Shown in pieces: positions 2,807 through 58,508 of a stretch of 64,000 nucleotides of DNA (position 1 is the stretch's first letter; every line of letters begins with the position of its first letter). Under the pieces are notes generated by a model. The model saw only the letters and a list, made by a program, of their open reading frames with translations, ran no database searches and was not told the origin of the DNA. A program made the position numbers and the translations under genes. Source of the stretch: an uncultured Gammaproteobacteria bacterium (GTDB lineage Bacteria > Patescibacteriota > Patescibacteriia > Magasanikbacterales > UBA922); assembly GCA_964565405.1 (NCBI GenBank), contig CAZMEW010000002.1, positions 20,918 through 84,917 of the forward strand, given 5' to 3'.

Positions 2807-3151
2807 TTAGTTCTTTGAAATTGCATGTTCCGATCGCGTGAGAGGGCGCCAGTCGTCGCAGTGGTTCAGGTGGTCGCCGTAGATGGCAACTTCCTCGAAC
2901 CGAGTGAAATCCCCCAGACGGGGACAGTCGGTGAACCAATAGATTTCGTCGAGGTCCATATTCATGATGAAAATAGTATATTCACCACGAAACACGGGAT
3001 ATCCGATTGCAGGTCGCCGGTCGAGTGCGGCCACGATCGTGTTCCGTCCGTGCTCACTGATCAGCAGTAGTGGACCGATCACGAATAAGATCGTGTAGGT
3101 CCAGATGAGTGCTTCGATGCGAAGCCGTTTTACTTTAGGTTTTTCTGCCAT
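2807..3151 (-). CDS. hypothetical membrane-anchored protein in a GC-rich patch
   Basis: Start at MAEKPKVKRLRIEALIWTYTILFVIGPLLLI, which has one TM segment. Local GC is visibly higher than the flanks. The antisense ORF 2825-3070 was rejected. Confidence 0.4.
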   Translation of the reverse strand: MAEKPKVKRLRIEALIWTYTILFVIGPLLLISEHGRNTIVAALDRRPAIGYPVFRGEYTIFIMNMDLDEIYWFTDCPRLGDFTRFEEVAIYGDHLNHCDDWRPLTRSEHAISKN

Positions 3152-8037: not shown

Positions 8038-9753
8038 TTAGTCTTTGGTGGCGCGAAGAATCTCTTCAATAGTGGTCAGTCCTTGCTTTGCCTTTATCAA
8101 TCCGTCCTGGAGTAAGGTGATCATGCCATTTTTAAGAGCATATTCTTTGATTTCTGTCGCATTTGCCTTGGTATTGATAATTTTTTGGAGTCCAGGATCG
8201 ATGACCATGACTTCATAGATTCCAATTCTACCCTTATACCCAGAGCCACCGCATTTTTTGCAACCCTTGCCTCGGTAGAACGTGAAGGATTCCAATGTTT
8301 TTTCTGTACTTGAAAGCTTTAAATGTTGTTCTTTGAATAAAGTGGAAAGTTTTGTTTTGTCGATCAAAACATGTAGTTGTTTTAATTCCTTACTTTCCAG
8401 TTTGAATGATTCTTTGCAATTCTGACATATTTTTCTGACTAAGCGCTGAGCAATAATGATGTTTGCAGTGAATGCAACAAGAAAGGGCGGGATGTCCATG
8501 TCAAGAAGACGGGGTAAAGTGGTCGGAGCGTCGTTGGTATGGAGCGTTGAAAGTACGAGGTGTCCAGTCATTGCTGCATGGATAGCTATTTCAGCCGTTT
8601 CCTTGTCTCGGATTTCTCCCACCATGATAATGTCAGGATCTTGGCGAAGAAATGCTCTGAGACCAGAGGCAAAGGTAAAACCAGCCTTAGGATTAATCTG
8701 GCTCTGATTGATACCACTAACGTGATACTCGATCGGATCCTCAATCGTGCAGATATTCACATCAGGTTGATTGAGCATGCCGAGAATAGAGTACAAGGTA
8801 GTCGTTTTTCCAGAACCCGTAGGACCAGTGACGAGAACCATACCGTGTGGTTTTTCAATCGCTTCCTCTACCAATTCTTTAACTCCTGGGAGAAAGCCGA
8901 GTTCATCGAGAGTGAGAGCCTTCTGCCCCTCATGCAACAAACGCATAACAATTTTTTCTCCATCGTATACAGGAATAATAGATACCCGAAAAGAAAGTGT
9001 TTCACCTTGTACTGAAATTTTGAATCGTCCGTCTTGCGGAACCATATGTTCATCAATTTTCAGATTTGAGAGAATTTTAATTCGAGCAACAATACCACTT
9101 TGGACTGCTTTGGGTAAATGCATCATCTCACGCAAGATTCCATCAATACGAAAGCGCACCACTACATCCAATTCAGTTGGTTCAATGTGTATATCACTTG
9201 AATTTTCAAAAACCGAGTGTTCGAGGACTGTATTGACGATATTGATAATAGGGAGCTCTTCGGCTGCTTTCTTCAAATCAGTGGGCTCTGAATGTGAAAG
9301 CGGTTGACTAAGTTCTTGTTTTAAATCAGAGTGATATTTACGCAGCGATTCTTTGATTTCTCGAGGAATAGTGATAAATATTTCAATATCCTTTCTAGTT
9401 TTTCTTCGGATAAATTCAATGGTCTGAACATCGGTTGGATCAGTCAAAGCAATCTTGAGTGAAGAATCAGTTTTTTCAAACGCAATAATATGGTGTGCTT
9501 CTGCAAAGGCTTCAGGTAGTTCATACAATGTTTCCTCAGGGATGTCGCGTCCTTTAAGAGAAATTCGCGAAACACCGTACTCATTAGCAATTGCATCATA
9601 GAGAGTATCTTCTTTGACAACATTTTTTTCGACTAGGTGAGTTTCAAGATCTTTACCACGATTGCGTGCGTCTTCAAGATAGGTCTCAATCTGAGAATCA
9701 GAAAGTTTGAATTTTTTTACAAGAATTTTTTTGAATTCTTCCAATGGTAACAT
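8038..9753 (-). CDS. pilB: type IV pilus assembly ATPase PilB (GspE family)
   Basis: Walker A motif VLVTGPTGSGKTTTLYS and a C-terminal tetracysteine Zn motif CQNCKESF...CKKCGGSG, with an N-terminal GSPII_E_N domain. Confidence 0.9.
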   Translation of the reverse strand: MLPLEEFKKILVKKFKLSDSQIETYLEDARNRGKDLETHLVEKNVVKEDTLYDAIANEYGVSRISLKGRDIPEETLYELPEAFAEAHHIIAFEKTDSSLKIALTDPTDVQTIEFIRRKTRKDIEIFITIPREIKESLRKYHSDLKQELSQPLSHSEPTDLKKAAEELPIINIVNTVLEHSVFENSSDIHIEPTELDVVVRFRIDGILREMMHLPKAVQSGIVARIKILSNLKIDEHMVPQDGRFKISVQGETLSFRVSIIPVYDGEKIVMRLLHEGQKALTLDELGFLPGVKELVEEAIEKPHGMVLVTGPTGSGKTTTLYSILGMLNQPDVNICTIEDPIEYHVSGINQSQINPKAGFTFASGLRAFLRQDPDIIMVGEIRDKETAEIAIHAAMTGHLVLSTLHTNDAPTTLPRLLDMDIPPFLVAFTANIIIAQRLVRKICQNCKESFKLESKELKQLHVLIDKTKLSTLFKEQHLKLSSTEKTLESFTFYRGKGCKKCGGSGYKGRIGIYEVMVIDPGLQKIINTKANATEIKEYALKNGMITLLQDGLIKAKQGLTTIEEILRATKD

Positions 9754-10619: not shown

Positions 10620-11069
10620 ATGGATCTCAATCGAGCAATGATCCTGGGTCGTCTTACTCGAGACCCTGAGGTCAAAAGTACGCCTTCAGGGCAAAGTGTG
10701 GCAAATATCGGCGTTGCAACGAGTCGTGTCTGGAAGGACGCAGGCGGTACACGCCAGGAACGTCCCGAATATCACAATGTGGTATTGTGGGGGAAACTTG
10801 CGGATATTGCTGGTCAGTACTTGGGGAAAGGACGCCGCGTGTACATCGAAGGGCGACTTGAAACCCGAGATTGGACAGGGCAAGATGGAGTAAAGCGATA
10901 TCGGACTGAAATTATCGCAGAGAACCTAATCATGCTTGACGCTCCACGAGGAGGAAATGCATCGGGAGAAAACTTTGGAAGTTCACGAGATGAAGACCGA
11001 AGCCATACAGCCGCACCTTCAACGGCTGCGCCAGATGACGAGATAAAAGTAGAAGATATTCCGTTTTAA
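10620..11069 (+). CDS. ssb: single-stranded DNA-binding protein
   Basis: OB-fold N-terminus and an acidic C-terminal tail ending DDEIKVEDIPF. Confidence 0.9.
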   Translation: MDLNRAMILGRLTRDPEVKSTPSGQSVANIGVATSRVWKDAGGTRQERPEYHNVVLWGKLADIAGQYLGKGRRVYIEGRLETRDWTGQDGVKRYRTEIIAENLIMLDAPRGGNASGENFGSSRDEDRSHTAAPSTAAPDDEIKVEDIPF

Positions 11070-30558: not shown

Positions 30559-32121
30559 TTAGTTTTCTTCCTTCAGATTTGCAAAATACTCTCTTGCTTT
30601 CAGATTTATATAGTAATCACAATAGAGTTTCATAGCTATAACCTCAGTTAGGGTTATAGGGTGACTTTTCTCATGTTTTACATCAGCTTGAAGTGCGGTA
30701 GCAAGAGTTAAAGTTTTATCTAAATCCTTCATTTCTCCAATTTTACTAAGTTGTTTTTTGATAACTTCTCTAAAATCACTTATACCATCCCAATCGCCAA
30801 AGATAATCGTAGCGTTTTTGAGAGCTTTGTAAAAACTGTCAAATGCATTTGCCTCAAGTTGTAAGTGTATGTCAACTTTGCTGAAACAAGTGAGCCCCAT
30901 AGCATACTCTTTCAAAAAACTCTCTAGTTTTTTAGATTCCATCATGAAAAACGTAATAATATCGTAGGTTTTTCTTGCCGCGTTTTGGTCAAGTACTAGT
31001 CTTGCTTCATCAAAACCCACATGCAATCGTTTATGAGGTGAAACGACCAATTTTACACCACCGTTTGGGTCAGCTTCAAGATCAACAATATCTACATAAT
31101 AAGTGGATATATCCTTCTGTACATTCCACCAAAAAATACCTAAAGTCCCAACATTAAATGCGAGCACCACTGTCTTTGCCATAAAGAAACCGTGCTCCCA
31201 TACATAACTAGTATGAAGACCTTTCGGTAACGTAAGATCGATAAGAAGCTCGCCTTTTGTGAGTTTATTAGGGTCTTTACGGTTAGACTTATAGATCTTT
31301 ATACCCTCAACACCTTTATTCCAATCGGCAAACGCGTTATTCCGGATCGTATGAGAGGGGGTTTGGATTCGGATACGCATTCTATATTTTGGTGCGAAGG
31401 CTTCTTCACCTTCTGGCTTTTCCCGTTGCATTTCTTTCTGGGCATATTCTCGCATCGCAATCTCATTTTGACGATAGACTTCATGTAACCATTTAATCCA
31501 TTCCTTACCGTTTCCAAGTTCACCTAGTTTTTTTAAAGATAAGGGACCAAATATCTGTTTACGATACTCAGTATCTTCTGCTGCAGAAAAAAACCATATA
31601 ATTTCCTCAATATCACCATTTTCAAATGGTTTCAATTCAGTTGTCTTCTCAATTTCAAGTCGCGTACGTGTCAATCCAATAATCATCCGTGCTTCATCTT
31701 CCTTAACTCGCTTATTTATTGGTAAGGGATTTTGAGGATCTGTATAAAGCGACTCAAGTCGTCGCTCATGCAGATTGAGTGCTAAATGACGAGTTTTTTC
31801 AATGATTTCTTTTGTGAATTTTACATCGCGTAATATGTCTGCACCCCATATCGCCCAAAAAAGTTTTTTAACATGATCATCCATCGCACCTACAAGCTCT
31901 TCTCTTTCGGGGCGCATAGCAAAGCTCATATAGTTGATTGTTGACAATATAGATTTACCAATTTCTTCTAGTGCTAAAAGAGCAAGATGGAAACAAATGT
32001 GGTCTGCATTTTTTCCAATCTCATTTTCGGCCATGGACAGGAGTGCTTCTGCATTTGCAAGACACATTTCTCGCATTATTTTAAGTTTTTCATATTTTTC
32101 TTCGTGTTTCATAAATTTCAT
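30559..32121 (-). CDS. AbiV/HEPN-like N-terminal domain fused to a large unknown C-terminal domain (candidate abortive-infection / defence protein)
   Basis: N-terminal NAEALLSMAENEIGKNADHICFHLALLALEEIGKSIL resembles the AbiV-type HEPN helix pair. Total length is about 520 aa, against about 200 aa for AbiV. Confidence 0.45.
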   Translation of the reverse strand: MKFMKHEEKYEKLKIMREMCLANAEALLSMAENEIGKNADHICFHLALLALEEIGKSILSTINYMSFAMRPEREELVGAMDDHVKKLFWAIWGADILRDVKFTKEIIEKTRHLALNLHERRLESLYTDPQNPLPINKRVKEDEARMIIGLTRTRLEIEKTTELKPFENGDIEEIIWFFSAAEDTEYRKQIFGPLSLKKLGELGNGKEWIKWLHEVYRQNEIAMREYAQKEMQREKPEGEEAFAPKYRMRIRIQTPSHTIRNNAFADWNKGVEGIKIYKSNRKDPNKLTKGELLIDLTLPKGLHTSYVWEHGFFMAKTVVLAFNVGTLGIFWWNVQKDISTYYVDIVDLEADPNGGVKLVVSPHKRLHVGFDEARLVLDQNAARKTYDIITFFMMESKKLESFLKEYAMGLTCFSKVDIHLQLEANAFDSFYKALKNATIIFGDWDGISDFREVIKKQLSKIGEMKDLDKTLTLATALQADVKHEKSHPITLTEVIAMKLYCDYYINLKAREYFANLKEEN

Positions 32122-32199
32122 CAAGATGTATAAATTGAAGTACACGAAATATAACAAAACTTGCTAAATTGAGCAAAAATGGTAGTATATTCATGTCTG

Positions 32200-32362
32200 C
32201 CTACAATTTCACCGAGAGTTTATTTTTTTAAAGGACTATTAAGACTGTCTTGTCTTATCCGTTTTATTGCGGATAAAGATGGGCAGTCAACCTCCACAAA
32301 ACGGAAAGTCCTTGGACTCTCTGTGAATAGTGGGCAGACCGGTTTGGCTGCCCTTTTTTGTT
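32200..32362 (+). ncRNA. candidate structured small RNA / leader ending in an intrinsic terminator
   Basis: Nested complementary segments (AAGGACT...AGTCCTT; CCGTTTT...AAAACGG) and a terminal GGGCAGACC(ggttt)GGCTGCCC hairpin followed by TTTTTT. No ORF is present. Confidence 0.25.
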
Positions 32363-32390
32363 TTTATATTTAATTCTTCACTTTTCCGAT

Positions 32391-33116
32391 ATGGATAAAC
32401 CACAAGCTAACCACTCGCCGAAGAAACCATTTTATAAAACATGGTGGTTCGGTGTTATCATTCTTGGATGTATCATAGTTTCATTCAGTTCAAACTCTTC
32501 TAACGATAACATTTCGACTCAGCCGCCCGTACACCAACCTAATACACCAGTTGAGCAGACTGTCGTACCCACCGTAACCGATAAAACCCCCGCTAAAACA
32601 ACAGTAACACCCGCAGCCAAGAAAGACGAGCCTGTTACCGATGTAACCGCCCAGACAACCCAAAATACAGACCCTCAAAACCAGACAGGTTCAAACGTCT
32701 ACGATCAGATACGAAAAAGAGCACAGGAGAAATGGCCGAACGACCCTGACATGCAAGAATACACGTACGATAATCAAAAGGCTGCATACGAACAATTTTC
32801 ACTGATTACCGCGTATCCCAATATCAAAGCTCAAGCGGTTTCGAAGTGGCCGACGGACTACGAAATGCAAGTCTATATGTATAATGAACAAAAAACGGCA
32901 TATGAGCGAATGGAGATGATCACCAAATACCCGGAAATAAAAACATATGCCCAAAACAAATGGCCAACTGATTACAGTATGCAGGTCTACACCTATGATA
33001 ATCAGGTTACCGCTTATGAAACTATGCTTAATTATCCCAACAGTCCTAAAAAATCTGCCGCTCAGCGCAAATGGCCAAAAGACTATGAGATGCAGGTGTA
33101 TGAATATCAAAATTAG
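32391..33116 (+). CDS. membrane-anchored protein with 3.5 tandem ~37-aa repeats (KWP.DY.MQVY.Y...AYE)
   Basis: TM segment WWFGVIILGCIIVSF, then a Thr/Pro-rich linker, then repeats KWPNDPDMQEYTYDNQKAAYEQ / KWPTDYEMQVYMYNEQKTAYER / KWPTDYSMQVYTYDNQVTAYET / KWPKDYEMQVYEYQN. Confidence 0.55.
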   Translation: MDKPQANHSPKKPFYKTWWFGVIILGCIIVSFSSNSSNDNISTQPPVHQPNTPVEQTVVPTVTDKTPAKTTVTPAAKKDEPVTDVTAQTTQNTDPQNQTGSNVYDQIRKRAQEKWPNDPDMQEYTYDNQKAAYEQFSLITAYPNIKAQAVSKWPTDYEMQVYMYNEQKTAYERMEMITKYPEIKTYAQNKWPTDYSMQVYTYDNQVTAYETMLNYPNSPKKSAAQRKWPKDYEMQVYEYQN

Positions 33117-33303
33117 CTATCTTTTTGATTAGGTAGCACCTCCTCTCGTTTACTCTCCAATTGTCCCGCTTCAAGCATCATCGCTACATCAATAGGTGCT
33201 CGTACTTCGTGAGTAGTTCTTCATACTCATATGAGCTAATTCTAGCCTTGACAACAAGGATTTTTTGTGTTATTATCTCATGTTCCAAAACAGAGGAGGA
33301 TTC

Positions 33304-34002
33304 ATGGAACAACGAGTGATGAAGTACACGGAATGGGTAGGTTATTTTGAGGGGTGGGCTCAGCTAAAACTCCGCGGCCAGACATCCGATTCTCCGGGCA
33401 TCATCCCTCGGTGGACTGAGACTCGTGAGATTCGGGTGATGTGGGAAGAGGGCATCACTGATGACACGGGCGAGTTCGTAGTTCGAGAAATCGCGCAATG
33501 GATTCGTGAGCTTTGTCTCGGTCTTGAGTTCACCGTGGTGCCGTATGGCACCGGATGGCGTGAAGCAGGACGGCGCGTCAGCGTCACCGACTACATCCGC
33601 CCCGCACTGCTTCCGAGCGGTGTCGACTATGAACAGCTTTTTCGGCTGTCGTACCATGAGCCGTATCGACGTGTGCACCAACACGCAGACGTCTACATCA
33701 TGAAACGACCGTTTCATGATGACACGGTTTCGTGGGGATGCTCGATCTTCGAGTACGGTTGTCTACTATTGACGCTTCACGGCGGTCGACAGAACAACCG
33801 GGATTTCTTGCGCGGCGTGGTACGCCATGAACTCGGCCATCTCTTCGGGATGCCGATTCACTGTGACCATGTCGGTGTCGAAGGATGGGCCTACGACTCA
33901 TCCTGCAACATGCACTACGCGGTACCGTCTTCCAGACTGTGTCCGAAGTGTCGCTCTCTCCTTCATCTCTGGTGGCAGCACATCAAAGCTGCTCTCCGAT
34001 GA
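33304..34002 (+). CDS. archaemetzincin-like zinc metalloprotease (peptidase M54-like) in a GC-rich patch
   Basis: HELGHLFGMPIHCDH followed by C...CPKC, the archaemetzincin HExxHxxGxxHC + Cys4 signature. Local GC is markedly above the flanks. Confidence 0.55.
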   Translation: MEQRVMKYTEWVGYFEGWAQLKLRGQTSDSPGIIPRWTETREIRVMWEEGITDDTGEFVVREIAQWIRELCLGLEFTVVPYGTGWREAGRRVSVTDYIRPALLPSGVDYEQLFRLSYHEPYRRVHQHADVYIMKRPFHDDTVSWGCSIFEYGCLLLTLHGGRQNNRDFLRGVVRHELGHLFGMPIHCDHVGVEGWAYDSSCNMHYAVPSSRLCPKCRSLLHLWWQHIKAALR

Positions 34003-34250
34003 AGATGACCCTGATGCGTCGTGCATCTGGCTGAACCCCTCGGGGCTCGCTACATCGCACGCGCATCGGGGGACAGTCAAAAATACATCACACCTGTGGT
34101 GTCTTTTTGTTTATAATTATAATGTACCCCCACTAAATAAGTATTTCTCCAATAAGTATGACAAAAGTGTCAGTAGTTTATAGTGGTTTTGGCTAAAATA
34201 CTTGATTTTTAATAGAGGTTAGAACATACTGAGATAAACATTCTTCACCT

Positions 34251-35849
34251 ATGTCTAAAGAAAAAATCTCTCAAGCAACACTATCTAGGGCAGCTGCATA
34301 TATTCGAGAGAGTACCGAGGAACAGGATAAGGGATACTCACCGGATAACCAAAAAGAGACTATTTTAAGGTATGCCAGACAAAATGGGATTGAGGTAGTA
34401 GAGTGGTACAAGGACCTATTTACTGGGCGTAGTGCAGAAAAAAGAATTGATTTTCAACGAATGATTGCAGACGCAATGATGAAGAAATTTGACGTTATTT
34501 TGATATTTCATAGCTCTCGATTTGCACGAAATGTAGAAGAGTCACAGCAGTATAAAAAGTTACTGCGTAATAAATTAGGAATTAATGTTGTTTCGGTAAC
34601 ACAAAATTTTGGTGACCCTGACGATCCCGGCTCCTTCCTTAATGAAGGAATAAACGAATTGTTTGATGAACATGTATCGAGGAATATCGGTTTCTGGGTT
34701 GGTACGAGTTTAATGGCAAAACGACAAAAGGGTTATCAATTAGGAAATCCACCGCTTGGGTATTACAAAAAGAAGATAGGGTATGATAAAGAAAGAGATC
34801 GGGTGATGTATGAAGGGGTGTGGCGTGTAGAAACAGACGAAGCAAAGCTCGTAAACCAGATTTTCAATTTGTATATCGGAGGAAACATGTCCTTTGCTGA
34901 TATAGCGGCAGAGTTAAATAAAAATGGTGGTAAAACAAAACATGGACATCCTTTCACCTATAGCTCAATTAAAGATACGTTAAATAATCGTTCATATCTT
35001 GGTTACACATATTCTCCCCGTAGAAACTACCCAGAATTACGAGCGAAACATAAGCCAATTATAACTGAAGAGTTATTTAATAAGGCACAGGAAGTGCTCA
35101 ACGACCGTAGACGTTCGAAGGGTCGTTCAACTGCAAAACATAGGTTCTATTTTTTGCAGAGTTTAGTGTTTTGTTACGGTTGCTATAAGCATTTGAAAGG
35201 AAAAGAAAATAATCCATCGGCCCGGCTTTTGCCAAAAATGTACTGTGTCACACAGCCTTCAGATGGTAAGGAGTACTACAGTTATGCCTGTAAATATCGT
35301 CGTGAGAATCATAGCTGTAAGCAGAAGAGTGTTAAATGCGAGACGATTGATGATGAGGTTAGTACGTATTTAGAAGGCTTTACACTGCCTAAAGATGTTA
35401 TCGAGGATACCATCTCACAGGTACGGGAGATGATTCAGTCTGCAAAAAAGACGCCTGATATGGTAGGGCGCATCAAACGCTTGGAAGAAAAGAAGAAGAA
35501 AATTGAATTTATATTCACTAATACGTCAGAATTGAGTGAGGAACAATACTTAGGTAAGTTAGAGGAGGTGAATATCGAATTAAATAAGTATTCTCAATTC
35601 GACCGGGTAGCAAGTAATGCACGGCGTGAAGAAGAATTCATTAAAAAAACCGAGCGTTTGCTCGGGGATTTCAAATCTCTGTGGGATACGTTTGATAAGG
35701 TTGAACGACGAAGGTGGGCAATGATGACGTTGAGGCGTGTGTGGGTAAAAGATGGAAAAGTCTATGCAATCGAACCGCAAGAGGAGTATAAGCCATTATT
35801 TGTTGCACATAGGGAAGTCTTGGGTCGAGCGGAATTGAACCCGTGCTAG
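34251..35849 (+). CDS. large serine recombinase (resolvase catalytic domain + recombinase domain + zinc ribbon + coiled-coil)
   Basis: N-terminal AAYIRESTEEQ with catalytic Ser, Cys cluster CYGCYKH...C..C, 532 aa. Confidence 0.85.
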   Translation: MSKEKISQATLSRAAAYIRESTEEQDKGYSPDNQKETILRYARQNGIEVVEWYKDLFTGRSAEKRIDFQRMIADAMMKKFDVILIFHSSRFARNVEESQQYKKLLRNKLGINVVSVTQNFGDPDDPGSFLNEGINELFDEHVSRNIGFWVGTSLMAKRQKGYQLGNPPLGYYKKKIGYDKERDRVMYEGVWRVETDEAKLVNQIFNLYIGGNMSFADIAAELNKNGGKTKHGHPFTYSSIKDTLNNRSYLGYTYSPRRNYPELRAKHKPIITEELFNKAQEVLNDRRRSKGRSTAKHRFYFLQSLVFCYGCYKHLKGKENNPSARLLPKMYCVTQPSDGKEYYSYACKYRRENHSCKQKSVKCETIDDEVSTYLEGFTLPKDVIEDTISQVREMIQSAKKTPDMVGRIKRLEEKKKKIEFIFTNTSELSEEQYLGKLEEVNIELNKYSQFDRVASNARREEEFIKKTERLLGDFKSLWDTFDKVERRRWAMMTLRRVWVKDGKVYAIEPQEEYKPLFVAHREVLGRAELNPC

Positions 35850-35895
35850 GAGAGCCACAATCTCCTGTGCTACCATTACACCATAGCCACCCCTA
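35830..35895 (-). pseudogene. truncated tRNA-His-like fragment (5' about 60 nt only), inverted relative to the intact tRNA-His, overlapping the recombinase 3' end
   Basis: The reverse complement reads G-GTGGCTATGGTGTAATGGTAGCACAGGAGATTGTGGCTCTCCTAGCACGGGTTCAATTCC and then diverges (GCTCGACCCA), so the T-stem 3' half and the acceptor 3' strand are missing. It is about 80% identical to tRNA-His at 27826. Confidence 0.55.
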
Positions 35896-36022
35896 AATTG
35901 ACCTCAAATCAAATTGTGGAGACGAGTATACGTCAAAATAAGGCTTTTGTCAACGACAAGTATAACACAACCCTGCACCATATAGTGCAGGGTTTGGATA
36001 AAATAGTAGAGATTTTTGCGTA

Positions 36023-36754
36023 TTAACCTTTCTTCTCGAATGATCGAAGAACTTCAAGTGGGACTGCAAATATTATTGTGTTGGATTGATCAGAGCTCAC
36101 GTCATTGATCGTACTCAATGTTCGAAGATGTAGAGCTCCAGGGCTACTAGAAAGCATTGCAGCGGCTTTGGAGATATTTTCTGCGGCTGCGATTTCTCCT
36201 TCTGCCTTGATAATGACAGCCCGTTTCTCACGCTCAGCTTCTGCCTGTTTTGCGATCACACGCTGCATGTCATCAGGGAGGGTAATATCTTTTAGTTCAA
36301 CGGTTTCAACCTTGATACCCCAGACATCGGTCGCGACATCGATCAGCTCTTTAATTTTTTTTGCAGCTTCCTCACGATTTGCTAAAAGCTGGTCAAGTTC
36401 AAGTTGTCCGACCACATTTCGCATGGTGGTCTGTGCAAGCTGGGAAACAGCAAACCAGAAATTTTCTACTTCAAGCACGGCTTTTGCAGCGTCGGCTACG
36501 CGGTAATAAATAACAGCATTAATTTTTGCAGACACATTATCCTTGGTTATTGCCTCTTGATAAGGCACATCCACTGCTTTGGTACGGATATCTACTTTCT
36601 GCATACTCTGGATAACCGGGAAAACAAGTCTCCACCCTGGTTCAACGATTTTCGTATACTTACCCAACTGAAATTTGACCCCACGTTGGTATTGGTTTAC
36701 CTGGCGAATACTGATAAACACAAGGAACACTGCGATCGCTATGAGTACCCACAT
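36023..36754 (-). CDS. SPFH/band-7 (stomatin/HflC-like) membrane protein
   Basis: N-terminal TM segment plus SPFH core (YQRGVKFQLGKY...) and a coiled-coil. Confidence 0.8.
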   Translation of the reverse strand: MWVLIAIAVFLVFISIRQVNQYQRGVKFQLGKYTKIVEPGWRLVFPVIQSMQKVDIRTKAVDVPYQEAITKDNVSAKINAVIYYRVADAAKAVLEVENFWFAVSQLAQTTMRNVVGQLELDQLLANREEAAKKIKELIDVATDVWGIKVETVELKDITLPDDMQRVIAKQAEAEREKRAVIIKAEGEIAAAENISKAAAMLSSSPGALHLRTLSTINDVSSDQSNTIIFAVPLEVLRSFEKKG

Positions 36755-36862
36755 ATTGAGTTACATAAGAATTATACGGATAGTATTGCGTAATCAGGCC
36801 ATAATTGCAAGAGAGTGGTTGTCATAACAAAAATCCGCTTTTAATGACGGATTTTGTATATG

Positions 36863-36934
36863 TGAGCCCAGCAGGAATCGAACCTGCGTATCCAGCTTAG
36901 AAGGCTAGTGTTCTATCCACTGAACTATGGGCTC
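36863..36934 (-). tRNA. tRNA-Arg (anticodon TCT)
   Basis: Reverse complement GAGCCCA TA GTTC AGTGGATA GAAC A CTAGC CTTCTAA GCTGG ATAC GCAGG TTCGATT CCTGC TGGGCTC A. Confidence 0.8.
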
Positions 36935-53824: not shown

Positions 53825-54403
53825 ATGATCGCACATATTCAAGGAATGATTATTGGAAGTACCAAACAAAGTGTGATTGTGGGAACACAGTCAGGACTTG
53901 GATATGAAGTAGTACTTCCAACGTATAAGCTTCTTGAATTAAACACAGGAGTTCCAGTGTCATTTTTCATCTATCACAAAGTCAGTGAGAATAGCCAGGA
54001 ATTATTTGGCTTTTCAGTTATGGAAGAGCGAGAGTTCTTTATGCTCCTCATGACTGTCTCTGGAATTGGACCGAAAAGTGCAATGAATATTATGTCACTC
54101 GGATCAGTCGAGGATATCCGGGACGCAATTGCGAGAGGTGATGTAGGCTACCTTACCTCAATTCAAGGAATGGGGAAGAAAACTGCAGAGAGATTGGTGG
54201 TTGAGTTGAAAAGTAAAATTGATCTCGGATCACGAGTATCGGTTCGCTCCAAACCTGCTGACGGAGTGCTCGATGATGTGGTTGAAGGTTTGATATCTAT
54301 GGGATATACCAAAGATGAATCAAGAGACATGCTTCAGAATGTGGAAGGTGAAGGAAAGAGTGCCGCAGAAATTTTGAAAGAAGTATTGTCGAGAAAGCGT
54401 TAA
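53825..54403 (+). CDS. ruvA: Holliday junction branch-migration protein RuvA
   Basis: N-terminal OB domain plus two HhH motifs (SGIGPKSA, IQGMGKKTAERL). Confidence 0.85.
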   Translation: MIAHIQGMIIGSTKQSVIVGTQSGLGYEVVLPTYKLLELNTGVPVSFFIYHKVSENSQELFGFSVMEEREFFMLLMTVSGIGPKSAMNIMSLGSVEDIRDAIARGDVGYLTSIQGMGKKTAERLVVELKSKIDLGSRVSVRSKPADGVLDDVVEGLISMGYTKDESRDMLQNVEGEGKSAAEILKEVLSRKR

Positions 54404-54424
54404 CTAAAAATTTAGAAACAAAAA

Positions 54425-54460
54425 ACCAGGCTGATGAAGCGTGGTTTTTTGTTCTAACCT
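54425..54460 (+). terminator. rho-independent terminator after ruvA
   Basis: AACCAGGC...GCGTGGTT hairpin followed by TTTTTT. Confidence 0.5.
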
Positions 54461-54542
54461 ATTTGCAAAATTTACAAACATGTTTCGCAGGCCCCTTTTT
54501 CAGTGTGGGGCGCACTGCCGGTTAGCACCGGCGGTATATTCG

Positions 54543-54986
54543 CTAGCGAGGCGGGACCCAGCCTTGCACATCCATGTCGAGGTTGAGGCCGAGTTCGTTC
54601 AGCACCTCAATCGTCTTCTCGAGATGCTTTTTGCCGAAGCCGTCGAGCTTCAGGAGTTCCTCACGTGTCATCTGAACGATCTGACCAACATAGGAGATAC
54701 CTGTGTGGGAGAACGTAGCCCACTTTTGACTGTTGAGGTATTTCCCATAGTTCAGCTCGTGGATACTTTTGTTAAGCTTCTCCATGAGTGAAGCGTGGAT
54801 TCGATCTGCTTCCTGTACAGCGTACGACCCACGCTGCACTTGTTTGAACGTGAGATGATTTCGAGCCCACCAATTCGCTGTTTCCTCGTCCATGTCCATC
54901 GGAATTGCCGCTACGGCCATTATCACAAGCCTACGGTATGTTTCAGGTTTCATAGCGCTACCTTCCTCATTTGTCTGTTTTGGCAA
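54543..54986 (-). CDS. stand-alone RNA polymerase alpha-subunit C-terminal-domain-like (HhH) protein, GC-rich
   Basis: VGQIVQMTREELLKLDGFGKKHLEKTIEVLNELGLNL matches the alpha-CTD consensus (T..ELLK.pNlGKKSL.EI...L...GL.L). The start could instead be the internal MKPETYRR. Confidence 0.5.
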   Translation of the reverse strand: MPKQTNEEGSAMKPETYRRLVIMAVAAIPMDMDEETANWWARNHLTFKQVQRGSYAVQEADRIHASLMEKLNKSIHELNYGKYLNSQKWATFSHTGISYVGQIVQMTREELLKLDGFGKKHLEKTIEVLNELGLNLDMDVQGWVPPR

Positions 54987-55035
54987 CCGATCTTTTTATC
55001 ATAAAAATTAATTTCTGTCAATCCTCAAATCAAAA

Positions 55036-55062
55036 ACCACCCTCATCAGGTGGTTTTTGATA
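55036..55062. repeat. 27-bp hairpin repeat copy 1 (AAAACCACCCTCATCAGGTGGTTTTT)
   Basis: Identical to the copy at 55922-55948. It is terminator-like in both orientations. Confidence 0.8.
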
Positions 55063-55144
55063 TCTAAAAATGAAGAAGATCTCCGTATCAACTGCACAGA
55101 AGTGCACGTTGTTACGGAGATCTAGACTAGGAGTGTGGTAGTAG

Positions 55145-55771
55145 CTAAGGTCGTTTCAGACCGCAGAACCACACACAGTCGTTGTAGCTCGTGTGCCGGG
55201 AGAAGGAGAACAGAAGGGTGCTTCGATCACCGTACGCACCGAGCACTAGCAGGTTTCCCTTCTCTTCTTCCCATGTCGCATCGGGATTGAAGATCCAGGT
55301 ACCATTTGTAGAACGCCAGATGCTTTTGACGTGCTGTTCGATGAGGGCTGCGATGTGCTCGAAGCCAGCTGGATCGAGATCGAGAAGTTCTCGGATCCGT
55401 TTGGCATGTTTGATGTTGGGGCGGTAGCTCAGTCGGTAGATGACGACGGTTGCGGTCGTCTTTTCACCCACAGTCCGGATGAGTGGGCCGAATGTCTCGG
55501 AGTCGAAGTGAATGGTCGCCCGGTTGATTCCTTCCAGACGTTTGCCCCAGTCTTCAGGGGTCAGTGTGGGATCGATCGTGACCACATACTCCCGCTTCTC
55601 TTTGACGAGTGCAGTGGGTCCATCATGGAGTTTCTGGAGAAGACCTCCGACCGAATCGGGATTCTCGATCCATTGCTGGGCAATGTTCGAGAATATATAT
55701 CCCGGGAGTTTTTGTACGAGTAGAGCGCTCAGCTCTTGGAGCTGCCCTTTACTCGCGTAGGAGTCTGACAT
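55145..55771 (-). CDS. hypothetical protein, GC-rich
   Basis: Start chosen at MSDSYASKG. No recognisable family. GC is much higher than the genome background. Confidence 0.45.
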   Translation of the reverse strand: MSDSYASKGQLQELSALLVQKLPGYIFSNIAQQWIENPDSVGGLLQKLHDGPTALVKEKREYVVTIDPTLTPEDWGKRLEGINRATIHFDSETFGPLIRTVGEKTTATVVIYRLSYRPNIKHAKRIRELLDLDPAGFEHIAALIEQHVKSIWRSTNGTWIFNPDATWEEEKGNLLVLGAYGDRSTLLFSFSRHTSYNDCVWFCGLKRP

Positions 55772-55921
55772 GTGATTTTTCTCCTTGGCTCTCTTTTGGT
55801 ATGAGTGTAACCTGACCAAAAGCCGACCAGAGGTAGTTTTTTATGGCAGGAGCACCATTACCACTGCCACCTGGATAGAAATATGATACAAAATATGATT
55901 TTTGTCAATCATAAGACAAAC

Positions 55922-55948
55922 TAAAACCACCCTCATCAGGTGGTTTTT
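55922..55948. repeat. 27-bp hairpin repeat copy 2
   Basis: aaaaccaccctcatcaggtggttttt, identical to copy 1. Confidence 0.8.
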
Positions 55949-55976
55949 ATATTTCTAATCTTGAGTCAATCAATTT

Positions 55977-58508
55977 CTATTCTCCCTCTTCTTCCTTTCC
56001 CGACTCAAGTAGCGCAAGACTTGCGACTTTATCACCCTCTTGCTTGAACCGCATGATGCGTACTCCTTGAGTAGCTCGACCAAGCGTTGAGATAGACTTG
56101 ATTGGGGTTCTAATTACCTGACCTTTTACGGAAATAATCATGAGATCTTGTGTCTCGGTATTATTGATTACGCGAGCACTTATGATATGTCCGGTCTTTG
56201 CAGTAACATCCATGGTTTTGATACCGCTACCTCCACGACTCTGTACTTTGTATTCCGTAAGCATGGTGCGTTTACCGAGACCATTTTCGGAGACTACTAG
56301 TAACTCTAATACTTTTTTCTTAACAAGATCTGAGGATACTACGTCCATACCTACGACTACATCATTGGAACGTAGTTTGATAGCCCTGACCCCGCTCGCA
56401 GTGCGTCCCATAGGGCGTACTTCTTTTTCCTGGAATCGAATTGCCTGACCACCTGAAGTTATAATAATAATATCGTTACTGCCGCTTGAAGGGCGTACCC
56501 ATTCGAGCATGTCATCTTCTTTGAGTTTCAAAGCGATCAATCCAGATCGACGAACGTTTTTGAAATCGTCAAGTTTGGTTTTTTTGATCGTACCTTTATT
56601 AGTTAGCATGACGAGATATTCGTATTTGGTCATGTCGTCCATAGAAAGAATGGTCGACATTTTTTCATTGGGTGCCAACTGGAGGAAATTTACGAGTGCT
56701 TGACCTTTAGCGGTACGACTTCCTTGTGGGATATCATACGCTCGAAGCTGGAATACACGTCCACGCGTGGTAAAGAATAGAATATTGTCATGGGTGTTGG
56801 TTGAGATTATTTGGTCGACCACATCTTCTTCTTTGGTTGTAAGCCCCATAACTCCCTTTCCACCACGACTCTGCTGCTTGAACGTATCTGGAGGAAGGCG
56901 TTTGATATAGCCATCCGCGGTCGTAATTATAAGTGTAGGCTCATTCGGCACCAAATCTTCGATAGAAAATTCCTTAACGCCGTGTTGAATAATTTTTGTT
57001 CTTCGATCTTCCGCGAACCGTTCACGGATTTCGGTAACTTCGCCTTTGATAATAGCAAGTATTTTTGCAGGACTCTTCAAGATCGATTCAAGTTCGGCAA
57101 TCAGCTTCTTCTTTTCCTTGAGTTCATCTTCAATTTTTTGTCTCTCGAGGTTTGCGAGTTGTTGTAAGCGCATTTCAAGAATCGCAACCGTCTGTCTCTC
57201 TGTAAAATCAAATTTTTTCATGAGGTTCACTTTCGCTTCTTCTTTATCTTTGGATTTACGAATAGTGGTGATGATGAGATCGATTTTGTCGAGCGCTTTT
57301 TTCAGTCCTTCGAGAATATGCGCACGATCCTTCGCTTTTTCAAGATCAAATTCAGTTCGTCTTCGAATGACCACTTGTCGGTGTTTGATAAATTCCTCAA
57401 GTACTGATTTTAGGTTCAACACGCGCGGTTGAATACCGTCAACCAGCGCAAGCATATTTACATGGAACGTGGTCTGGAGTTCGGTTAATTTGAATAATTG
57501 ATTTAAGACTTTTTTAGGATACGAATCTTTTTTGAGCTCAATCACGATACGTACTCCATCTTTGTTTGACTCATCACGCAGATCTTTGATTCCATCAAGT
57601 TTTTTTTCTTGTACTAAGGTGGCAATTTTTTCAATCAGAGTCGCCTTGTTCACCTGGTAGGGAACTTCACTCACAATAATATTGAATCGATCACCAGCAA
57701 GTTCAACAATCTCAGTTTTTGCTCGCATAACAATCCCACCTCGTCCGGTTGCGTATGCTGCGAGAATATCATTTTTACTATAGATAATTCCACCCGTCGG
57801 GAAATCAGGACCTTTGATATGATCAACTAATTCTTCAATCGTAATTTTCGGGTTTTCAATGAGCGCAGCAATACCATCGCATAATTCTCCCAAGTTGTGC
57901 GGAGGGATATTAGTTGCCATACCAACCGCAATACCCATGCTCCCATTCAAGAGTAGGTTGGGAAATTTGCTTGGAAGTACCCGAGGTTCCTTGTGGGAGC
58001 CATCGTAGGTGGGCGCAAAATCAACGGTATTTTTTTCGATATCAAGAAGCATTTCTTCTGCGAGTGAACGAAGTTTTACTTCAGTGTAACGCATGGCTGC
58101 GGCACTATCTCCATCCATGGAACCGAAGTTTCCTTGACCGTGCACAAGCATGTGGCGCATGTTGAATTCTTGCGCCATTCTAACCAATGAATCGTAGATC
58201 GCTGAATCTCCGTGAGGATGGTATTTACCCATCACGTCTCCTACGACGTGTGCAGATTTTCTGAATTTTGCAGTATGTTTCAATCCGATGCCCCACATGG
58301 CATATAAAATACGTCGATGCACGGGCTTGAAACCATCTCGAACATCAGGTAGTGCTCGAGAAACAATCACACTCATTGCATAATCAAGATATGAAGTGCG
58401 CATTTCTTCTACTAAATTGACCGTTTCGACTTTTCCCTCAGTTAGACTTGGTTGGACTGGTTTAGGTACTACAGGTTCTACAATTTCTTTGGTGTCTTTT
58501 TTACTCAT
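55977..58508 (-). CDS. gyrA: DNA gyrase subunit A
   Basis: Active-site region ...[35 protein letters not shown], GyrA-box QSRGGKG, 843 aa. Confidence 0.9.

Follow-up and report, generated by a model that had tools for sequence, protein, structure and literature searches.

Gene content of the gyrA–ruvA gap

The DNA analysed here, called the window throughout, is a stretch of 64,000 nucleotides from contig CAZMEW010000002.1 of assembly GCA_964565405.1, and our subject is the gap between two convergent housekeeping genes within it, gyrA and ruvA. The gap holds two GC-rich minus-strand genes, in the order ruvA (+), ORF A (−), ORF B (−) and gyrA (−). ORF A encodes a stand-alone relative of the C-terminal domain of the RNA polymerase alpha subunit (alpha-CTD), and both ORFs are accompanied by promoter-like sites and hairpins. 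The initial annotation, made from the letters alone, had described the region as a GC-rich insert of about 1.5 kb, flanked by identical 27-bp hairpin repeats and carrying two minus-strand ORFs. Both ORFs indeed lie between ruvA and gyrA, but the repeats do not flank the insert as described, and the comparison with related genomes favours a different reading, that of a chromosomal hotspot with probably exchangeable, individually insulated units. The features of the locus are as follows.

53825–54403, plus strand: ruvA, from the ORF list; conserved right flank, protein 91–93% identical to relatives, whose orthologues match Pfam RuvA_N, HHH_5 and RuvA_C
54417–54453, strand not applicable: A/T-flanked hairpin between convergent ruvA and ORF A; inverted repeat, and terminal hairpin in the fold of the ORF A 3′ untranslated region (UTR)
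54454–54542, minus strand: GC-rich 3′ UTR of ORF A, without long hairpin and TCTTCTTCATTTTTA
54543–54953, minus strand: ORF A, 136 aa, PF03118 match; ATG start at 54953, preceded by GAGGAAGG
54993–55023, minus strand: promoter-like site of ORF A, GATTGACAGAA, read from the sequence; motif conserved at the locus
55033–55058, strand not applicable: 26-nt hairpin, copy 1, after the ORF B terminator and before the ORF A promoter
55065–55123, minus strand: predicted ORF B terminator, with long hairpin H (55077–55123), then TCTTCTTCATTTTTA (55065–55079)
55145–55771, minus strand: ORF B, 208 aa, no known family; gene enclosed by both 26-mers
55772–55910, minus strand: promoter-like site of ORF B (GATTGACAAAA at 55900–55910; TTGACA-17-CATATT) and 5′ leader of about 110 nt
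55923–55948, strand not applicable: 26-nt hairpin, copy 2, directly after gyrA; orthologous to the single post-gyrA hairpin in relatives
55977–58508, minus strand: gyrA; conserved left flank, orthologues with DNA_topoisoIV and DNA_gyraseA_C

In the description that follows, unit A spans 54454–55058 and unit B 55059–55922. The hairpin at 54417–54453 is predicted to be a bidirectional terminator common to ruvA and ORF A.

Variation of the gap among related genomes

At least seven further assemblies carry gene A between gyrA and ruvA, and their flanks are only 76–92% identical in nucleotides. Such a recurrence in diverged genomes speaks against the earlier description of the alpha-CTD gene as part of one insert. 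The right-hand flank has the order ruvA-pepA-ileS, with gyrA on the opposite side, in all loci, and the A or B homologue is situated in this gap in every contig long enough to judge. The content of the gap varies as listed here.

Window: gyrA>B>A<ruvA
L002 to L004 (short contigs, no ruvA): gyrA 3′ end (L002 only)>B>A
L035: gyrA>B>A, then three normal-GC genes, <ruvA
L001: gyrA>A>B′<ruvA
L005 and L006: gyrA>A, then a 197-aa gene
L034: A only
L036: B and the 197-aa gene, without A
L032: gyrA>A, then contig end

Gene A directly follows gyrA in L005, L032 and L034. Alleles of gene A have diverged much further than their flanks, whose phylogeny they do not match. At the 3′ end of gyrA, L001 and L002 show 91.6% nucleotide and 98.6% protein identity, with a synonymous divergence (dS) of 0.44, yet gene A is only 63.6% identical between the two loci (dS 1.46), the gene order is reversed, and B and B′ share only about 25% identity. 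Between L001 and L005, gyrA is 94.7% identical and A 36%. The window is an outgroup by its flanks (about 85% protein identity), yet its A is closest to that of L005 (62%). Shared boundaries are seen as well: the module of short hairpin and promoter before A in L002 and L035 is identical to the module directly after gyrA in L001, and L005 and L036 have left and right hairpins and the 197-aa neighbour in common, although L005 carries A and L036 carries B. No recombinase domain was found among the called genes within 8–10 kb in L001, L005, L032, L034, L035 and L036. In the window itself, the closest such gene encodes a serine recombinase (34251–35849) and is 20 kb away.

The remaining genes of the gap (L035 3996–5554, L005 2083–2676 and L036 8775–9368) encode proteins of 265, 137, 73 and 197 aa. 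They have host-like GC content, match no Pfam family and lack the promoter and terminator modules described below; low complexity and a high content of charged residues mark the 197-aa protein.

Base composition and selection

The two ORFs are compositionally atypical, as the initial annotation had proposed, and the anomaly extends to codon usage. The GC content is 50.9% in ORF A and 54.0% in ORF B, compared with 40.9% for the window, and the block 54453–55922 ranks 18th among 6253 windows of equal size (z = 3.4). The excess is located at third codon positions, where the GC fraction (GC3) is 0.61 in ORF A and 0.62 in ORF B against 0.347 ± 0.034 in the 42 other genes (z ≈ 8). In the two ORFs, relative synonymous codon usage is uncorrelated with that of the host (r = 0.03 for A and −0.13 for B, compared with 0.75 for ruvA and 0.90 for pepA).

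A recent horizontal transfer does not account for this excess, which is equal in relatives whose synonymous sites are saturated. In the related loci, gene A has a GC content of 49–54%, against about 40% for the surroundings where sufficient flank is available. The proportion of synonymous differences among A alleles is 0.57–0.83, and GC3 is nevertheless still about 0.6, with a host value of about 0.35. Simple transfer followed by amelioration does not predict an excess that lasts through saturating divergence. Possible causes are selection, repeated supply from an external pool of GC-rich genes, or a recombination hotspot with GC-biased gene conversion. The locus could therefore be used to test gene conversion against an external pool. 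No relatives of A or B were detected in IMG/VR or INPHARED, nor of B in PLSDB. The matches that A gave in viral and plasmid collections proved to be bacterial rpoA in mislabelled records, and a phage or plasmid origin was rejected.

The ratio of nonsynonymous to synonymous divergence (dN/dS) is 0.14–0.38 for A and 0.18–0.29 for B, compared with 0.02–0.07 for gyrA. Both ORFs are under purifying selection and hence real genes, although far less constrained than gyrA.

As an internal control for the GC3 test, a gene for a single-stranded-DNA-binding protein (10620–11069, plus strand) forms a local GC peak with a host-like GC3 of 0.39, so that its GC content reflects amino-acid make-up and not foreign origin.

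The stand-alone alpha-CTD protein

The assignment of ORF A to the alpha-CTD family, and the absence of the N-terminal assembly domain (alpha-NTD), were borne out by profile comparisons. ORF A matches Pfam PF03118 (RNA_pol_A_CTD) with 30 bits over residues 82–120 (gathering score 23.8, E = 4.2e-7), and a family profile of A matches the RpoA alpha-CTDs in the PDB over the whole domain (profile positions 60–134, 57 bits, E = 2e-14), with 9zum and 7ye1, apparently alphaproteobacterial RpoA, as the best matches. The NCBIfam rpoA models align with ORF A through their last ~90 positions only (ORF residues ~36–134), with scores of 20–44 against cut-offs of 228–523. As for RpoA, the hydrophobic core is conserved in the A family, in the motifs Y-[IV]-G-x-L-V-Q, F-G-K-K and L-G-L-x-L-x-M-x-V-x-G-W-x-P-P. 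Unlike RpoA, the 136-aa protein has no alpha-NTD, begins instead with a new, lineage-specific helical region of about 55 aa with the family motif Y..L.....AAIP.DLD...A..W, has lost most DNA contacts, and belongs to a rare family. An exhaustive HMMER search of 1.84 billion representatives found full-length relatives in five clusters at 50% identity (P0001, P0003, P0010, P0011 and P0060), and a search of 5.8 billion proteins yielded, apart from self matches, two clusters for A and one for B. The alpha-CTD is a compact fold of two helix-hairpin-helix motifs; the AlphaFold2 model of A has a mean predicted local distance difference test (pLDDT) score of 49, with residues ~90–130 helical at 63–71, and was computed from an input alignment of three sequences only.

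At the positions that correspond to the DNA contacts R265, N268, C269, G296, K298 and S299, the protein of the window has Q, A, T, G, K and H, respectively, and thus keeps two of six, in an alignment for which the E. coli numbering was checked on the Salmonella RpoA sequence and which is uncertain in the first helix for the A subtype of the window. Lys297 is also kept, next to Gly296 and Lys298, and no member of the A family retains all six contact residues. Because Arg265 and other DNA contacts are replaced, canonical UP-element binding by protein A appears doubtful, which weakens the earlier suggestion of a free alpha-CTD that redirects host transcription in so far as it assumes such binding. 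In the absence of the alpha-NTD, the protein should also be unable to assemble into RNA polymerase. We suggest, with low confidence, that as a free alpha-CTD surface it may compete for the protein partners of the alpha-CTD or mimic them. No rpoA gene is present in the window or in the related loci that were fetched.

The same domain occurs outside RpoA elsewhere, with 3182 matches to PF03118 in non-RpoA proteins at E ≤ 0.001 in an exhaustive search (proteins P0006–P0153). Tandem arrays of 2–10 copies are frequent among these proteins. Fusions to ResIII/Helicase_C, sigma-70 region 4 or Sel1 domains also occur, and some of the proteins have an apparent signal peptide. The G-W-x-P-P tail is common to ORF A, many of the non-RpoA proteins and the best-matching RpoA structures. 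ORF A differs from the non-RpoA group in having a single copy of the domain behind an N-terminal region of its own, whereas the others are long, multi-copy or fused proteins of other organisms. The literature searched contains no functional description of non-RpoA alpha-CTD proteins and no role of a free-standing alpha-CTD as a trans modulator; the terms stand-alone alpha-CTD, PF03118 and Magasanikbacteria gave nothing relevant.

Promoter-like boxes and the long hairpin

In the loci covered by our comparison of unit modules (the window, L001, L002, L005, L034, L035 and L036), each GC-rich gene, be it A, B or B′, has one GATTGACAAAA box (−35) upstream and one hairpin with TCTTCTTCATTTTTA downstream, and neither module was found beside the normal-GC genes of the gap. 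The exception is ORF A of the window, which lacks the 3′ element H and ends at the shared hairpin 54417–54453; in every relative examined that extends beyond the gene, A is followed by H and TCTTCTTCATTTTTA. This 15-nt core motif occurs only once in the window, after ORF B. Upstream of ORF A, TTGACA at 55016–55021 is separated by a 17-nt spacer from an extended −10 box, TGaTAAAAA, that ends at 54993, and the A promoter type across loci is TTGACA-N17/18-TGnTAAAAA. The promoter-like TTGACA-17-CATATT of ORF B is the best match of a promoter scan in the 10-kb region (10/12).

The H hairpin of ORF B folds as RNA with −30.5 kcal/mol (z = −6.7), and H elements overall with −19 to −34 kcal/mol (z = −5.4 to −6.8), with a U-rich tract, UUCUUCAUUUUU, directly after. 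Their stems differ by unit, with AGATCTCCGTA in the window, GACCCTCGC in the other B units and GACTCTCGCGC in the A units, and their ends follow the pattern GA[CT]NCTC...GAG[NN]TC TTCTTCATTTTTA. In nine elements, 89.7% of the cells are paired, compared with 30–47% when the partner strand is slid; seven pairs are changed on both sides, and none of 500 shuffles reaches the observed pairing. The simplest reading is that H with UCUUCUUCAUUUUU would act as a strong intrinsic terminator, followed by a short bidirectional hairpin, T, which a terminator test flagged on both strands (9–10 bp and a T-run).

At gathering thresholds, Rfam identified tRNAs only in the window, and a permissive search of 54380–56000 gave only sub-threshold matches to terminator-bearing families. 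We also considered an antisense mini-ORF, TAAAAATGAAGAAGA (MKK..., the reverse complement of the core). It was rejected, having no Shine-Dalgarno sequence within 15 nt and no conserved peptide length or stop, and the variation is compensatory for the hairpin and not synonymous. A search for the core motif gave no viral and no Joint Genome Institute (JGI) metagenome matches, and 25 matches in GTDB species genomes. Only two of these are real, and both lie at the gyrA|ruvA locus of GCA_964447765.1, the only genome that could be scanned whole. The remaining GTDB matches are due to chance, e.g., MKK gene starts, and the core was rejected as a widespread element.

The 26-nt repeat

The repeat that had been described as 27 bp long is a real, exact pair, but its length is 26 nt (AAAACCACCCTCATCAGGTGGTTTTT) and the first coordinate was about 3 nt off; the copies lie at 55033–55058 and 55923–55948. 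No further copy exists in the 64-kb window with up to three mismatches allowed (chance expectation 0), which sets the 26-mer apart from a common terminator of many copies. It folds into a 9-bp stem with a 7-nt loop, has an A-run on one side and a T-run on the other, and is terminator-like on both strands in the scan. A third, diverged relative, with inverted loop, adjoins ruvA at 54417–54453 and is a 65% member of the repeat family.

The position of the two copies is not compatible with repeats that flank a 1.5-kb insert with the alpha-CTD gene. They enclose only ORF B and its control regions (55059–55922), and ORF A is situated outside, between copy 1 and the ruvA hairpin. Hairpins of the type AAAACCACCC-loop-GGGTGGTTTT occur once per related locus and twice in the window. 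The position of this T-type hairpin in the relatives is immediately downstream of gyrA; in L001 alone it separates A from B′. In both copies of the window, a derived C-to-T change has replaced the top C-G pair of the stem by U·G, and outside the hairpin the identity between them drops at once, with the exception of the −35 box. Identical copies that share a derived change point to duplication or gene conversion within the lineage of the window. The best reading of the 26-mer is thus a cassette-head terminator module duplicated in that lineage, and its presence in two copies follows from a tandem array of T-headed units. This comes close to the earlier suggestion of a mobile terminator module or recombination scar. 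As a direct repeat around unit B, the 26-mer could mediate loss or gain of B.

ORF B and its leader

ORF B was correctly described as having no recognisable family, and gave no match in Pfam, PHROGs, PADLOC, NCBIfam or the PDB. The search for relatives yielded only the diverged B′ of L001 and, at 65% identity, the P0005 cluster; a profile search and a JGI scan revealed no homologues beyond that cluster. The B gene of the window is separated from its nearest known relatives by a dS of 1.1–1.3. The annotation of a close homologue, MBP9731911.1, names Candidatus Magasanikbacteria, and the clade thus belongs to the ultra-small bacteria of the candidate phyla radiation (CPR, or Patescibacteria). 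The AlphaFold2 model of B is unreliable (pLDDT 42), and Foldseek matches obtained with it (template modelling score ≤ 0.23) were disregarded as noise.

The 5′ leader of ORF B, about 110 nt long (55772–55880, minus strand), is conserved in L002, L035 and L036 and contains two hairpins. The second, GGCUUUUGGU...ACCAAAAG..AGCC, has changed in a compensatory way in relatives (GGC/GCC) and abuts the Shine-Dalgarno sequence AAGGAG. The leader may be a translational control element; its fold has a z of only −2.2, and Rfam contains no match for it.

In L001, B′ is located at 8574–9191 (+) of CAYUTO010000003.1, assembly GCA_964447765.1, and has the motifs LNLDPTGFEHIAA and VWFCGL. The source annotation gives instead a 191-aa ORF on the opposite strand (8670–9245), which is the wrong strand with respect to the conserved B′ frame. 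That record is labelled 'uncultured Gammaproteobacteria', although gene content and relatives indicate CPR/Magasanikbacteria.

A probable hotspot of insulated units

We consider it probable, at roughly 65%, that the gyrA|ruvA gap is an accessory-gene hotspot in a clade of Candidatus Magasanikbacteria, occupied by swappable, individually insulated, moron-like units of high GC3. The anatomy and synteny of the locus, its variable content, its compositional anomaly, the purifying selection on both ORFs and the conservation of the hairpin structures are direct observations. On the minus strand, a unit would consist of the T hairpin with its A-run and T-run, the GATTGACAAAA −35 box with a −10 box, the ORF, and H with UCUUCUUCAUUUUU. 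The window would then hold two independent transcription units, A and B, where copy 2 of the 26-mer would terminate gyrA and head unit B, and copy 1 would head unit A, which probably lost its own H terminator. We infer an exchange of units by homologous recombination from the incongruent A alleles, the variable content, the shared modules, the lack of a recombinase and the restriction of the core to one locus. Gain, loss and swapping of units would proceed by way of gyrA and ruvA as conserved flanks, and further routes of recombination may be provided by the direct-repeat hairpins and by short boundary sequences that are conserved.

The locus resembles several known kinds. Phage morons are extra genes in lambdoid and other prophages with their own promoter and factor-independent terminator and with a base composition unlike that of their neighbours, a concept reportedly due to Hendrix, Juhala and colleagues. 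As for morons, each unit has its own sigma-70-type promoter and hairpin/U-tract terminator (here by consensus and folding), lies between genes that are neighbours in related genomes, and contrasts sharply in composition. Unlike morons, the units are surrounded by housekeeping genes, gyrA and ruvA, instead of a prophage, and no PHROG or viral-contig relatives were found. Furthermore, unrelated ORFs share homologous promoter and terminator modules here, in a tandem and permutable arrangement, and the compositional contrast has outlasted saturating divergence. Hotspots for accessory genes between core genes, filled by homologous recombination in the flanks, are a general concept, and the gap agrees with it in its conserved flanks, variable content, lack of a recombinase and alleles incongruent with the flanks. 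Its contents are, in contrast, two recurring gene families with shared control modules, and not diverse island genes.

Several points weigh against a hotspot of swappable units. No empty gyrA|ruvA site was seen among the assemblies, so that insertion into the junction as such is not demonstrated, and the evidence for swapping comes from about nine assemblies, several of them represented by short contigs. A GC3 that persists at about 0.6 despite saturated synonymous sites is a further difficulty, and viral, plasmid and JGI metagenome collections yielded no donor. Promoters and terminators are predictions from consensus matches and folds. Across diverged stems the 15-nt TCTTCTTCATTTTTA is invariant, a degree of conservation beyond what a U-tract by itself requires. 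Any function of A is conjecture, and the structure models are poor (pLDDT 49 for A and 42 for B).

Alternative explanations

If one mobile insert of about 1.5 kb had recently brought in both genes, with the hairpins at its ends as att core, duplicated target site or recombination scar, the exact 26-mer direct repeats and the foreign codon usage would be explained, and so would the placement of ORF B between the repeats and the existence of several relatives without B. For the alpha-CTD gene this is the wrong reading, since the repeats enclose B only and A occupies the same junction in at least seven diverged assemblies. For the locus as a whole we regard it as very unlikely: the B gene of the window is at dS 1.1–1.3 from its nearest relatives, relatives have an orthologue of one repeat copy as their ordinary gyrA terminator, and no integrase or transposase is found between or beside the repeats or within 8–10 kb in any locus. 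A site-specific cassette system of integron- or dif-like type, with H and the core, or T, as sites, a recombinase elsewhere in the genome and circles that re-insert, would account for the permuted order. A covarying hairpin with an invariant 15-nt core is found 3′ of unrelated ORFs, direct-repeat hairpins surround units, and presence, absence and order vary among genomes that are 92% identical in gyrA. The order Tb-A-Ta-B′-Tc in L001 is even a circular permutation of Ta-B-Tb-A-Tb in L002, although B′ is only 25–29% identical to B, and a permutation of this kind is thus not recent. Integron cassettes likewise form tandem units of variable content and order, with a structured hairpin (attC) 3′ of unrelated ORFs. 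They are mostly promoterless, however, whereas the gyrA|ruvA units each have a GATTGACAAAA box in a strong predicted promoter of their own, and the units have no integrase, no attI and no R″/R′ consensus (RYYYAAC...GTTRRRY). There is no recombinase gene in or near the loci, the core is restricted to the gyrA|ruvA locus, where it occurs twice, in GCA_964447765.1, and a hairpin with U-tract is fully explained as a terminator. On balance such a system is unlikely here.

Both genes are small, adjacent, fast-evolving and exchanged within a hotspot, and the window also contains an AbiV/HEPN gene and a serine-recombinase island, together with a gene of the same codon make-up (see below). These traits would suit a conflict system, i.e., a toxin-antitoxin pair or an anti-phage system in which the alpha-CTD protein is a DNA-binding regulator, an antitoxin or a decoy for phage factors. 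A is found without B in L034, L005 and L006, however, and B without A in L036, and the two genes lie in separate predicted transcription units and do not form an operon. Independent occurrence in separate units argues against a toxin-antitoxin or two-gene defence function. PADLOC returned nothing for B and, for A, only WH_III-A with E = 0.006, and we consider a conflict system highly improbable. A bolder version of the hotspot would make it a dedicated cassette-exchange site, where T, H and TCTTCTTCATTTTTA double as terminators and crossover sites, and where insulated genes from an external GC-rich pool are inserted, leave as circles and are permuted. Free alpha-CTDs would serve there as hijackers or decoys of alpha-CTD-dependent regulation, be it against phages or in a conflict of the epibiont with its bacterial host; we mention this version as a conjecture with very little likelihood. 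Exchange through the flanks, as set out above for insulated units, is preferred to all of these.

With a fast-evolving, free-standing alpha-CTD family under its own predicted strong promoter, in organisms of minimal regulation, protein A is a natural candidate for a trans modulator of alpha-CTD-dependent transcription, and the thousands of non-RpoA PF03118 proteins are consistent with a wider trans role for alpha-CTD domains. CPR genomes, which have few recognisable mobile elements, may trade accessory genes by means of such fixed-site, ready-to-express units.

Other GC3-rich genes in the window

A gene at 33304–34002 (+) encodes a protein of 232 aa with an HExxH motif and only weak archaemetzincin/SprT-like matches, and has a GC3 of 0.61 (z = 7.8). 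It is preceded by a near-consensus promoter, TTGACA-17-TGtTATTAT, and followed by a long hairpin and a short terminator (−52.6 kcal/mol, z = −5.3). The surrounding island (30559–36934) includes the AbiV/HEPN gene (30559–32157), the large serine recombinase (34251–35849), a tRNA-like sequence (35821–35890) that overlaps the 3′ end of the recombinase gene, and tRNA-Arg (36862–36934).

An ORF at 2807–3151 (−) has a GC3 of 0.60 and encodes about 114 aa with one hydrophobic stretch, possibly a transmembrane helix. A TTGACA box lies upstream of it, and the hairpin CACCGTCTGC...GCAGACGGTG with a T-run downstream. As this ORF is built like the units between gyrA and ruvA, GC3-rich insulated units may be a general class in the genome.

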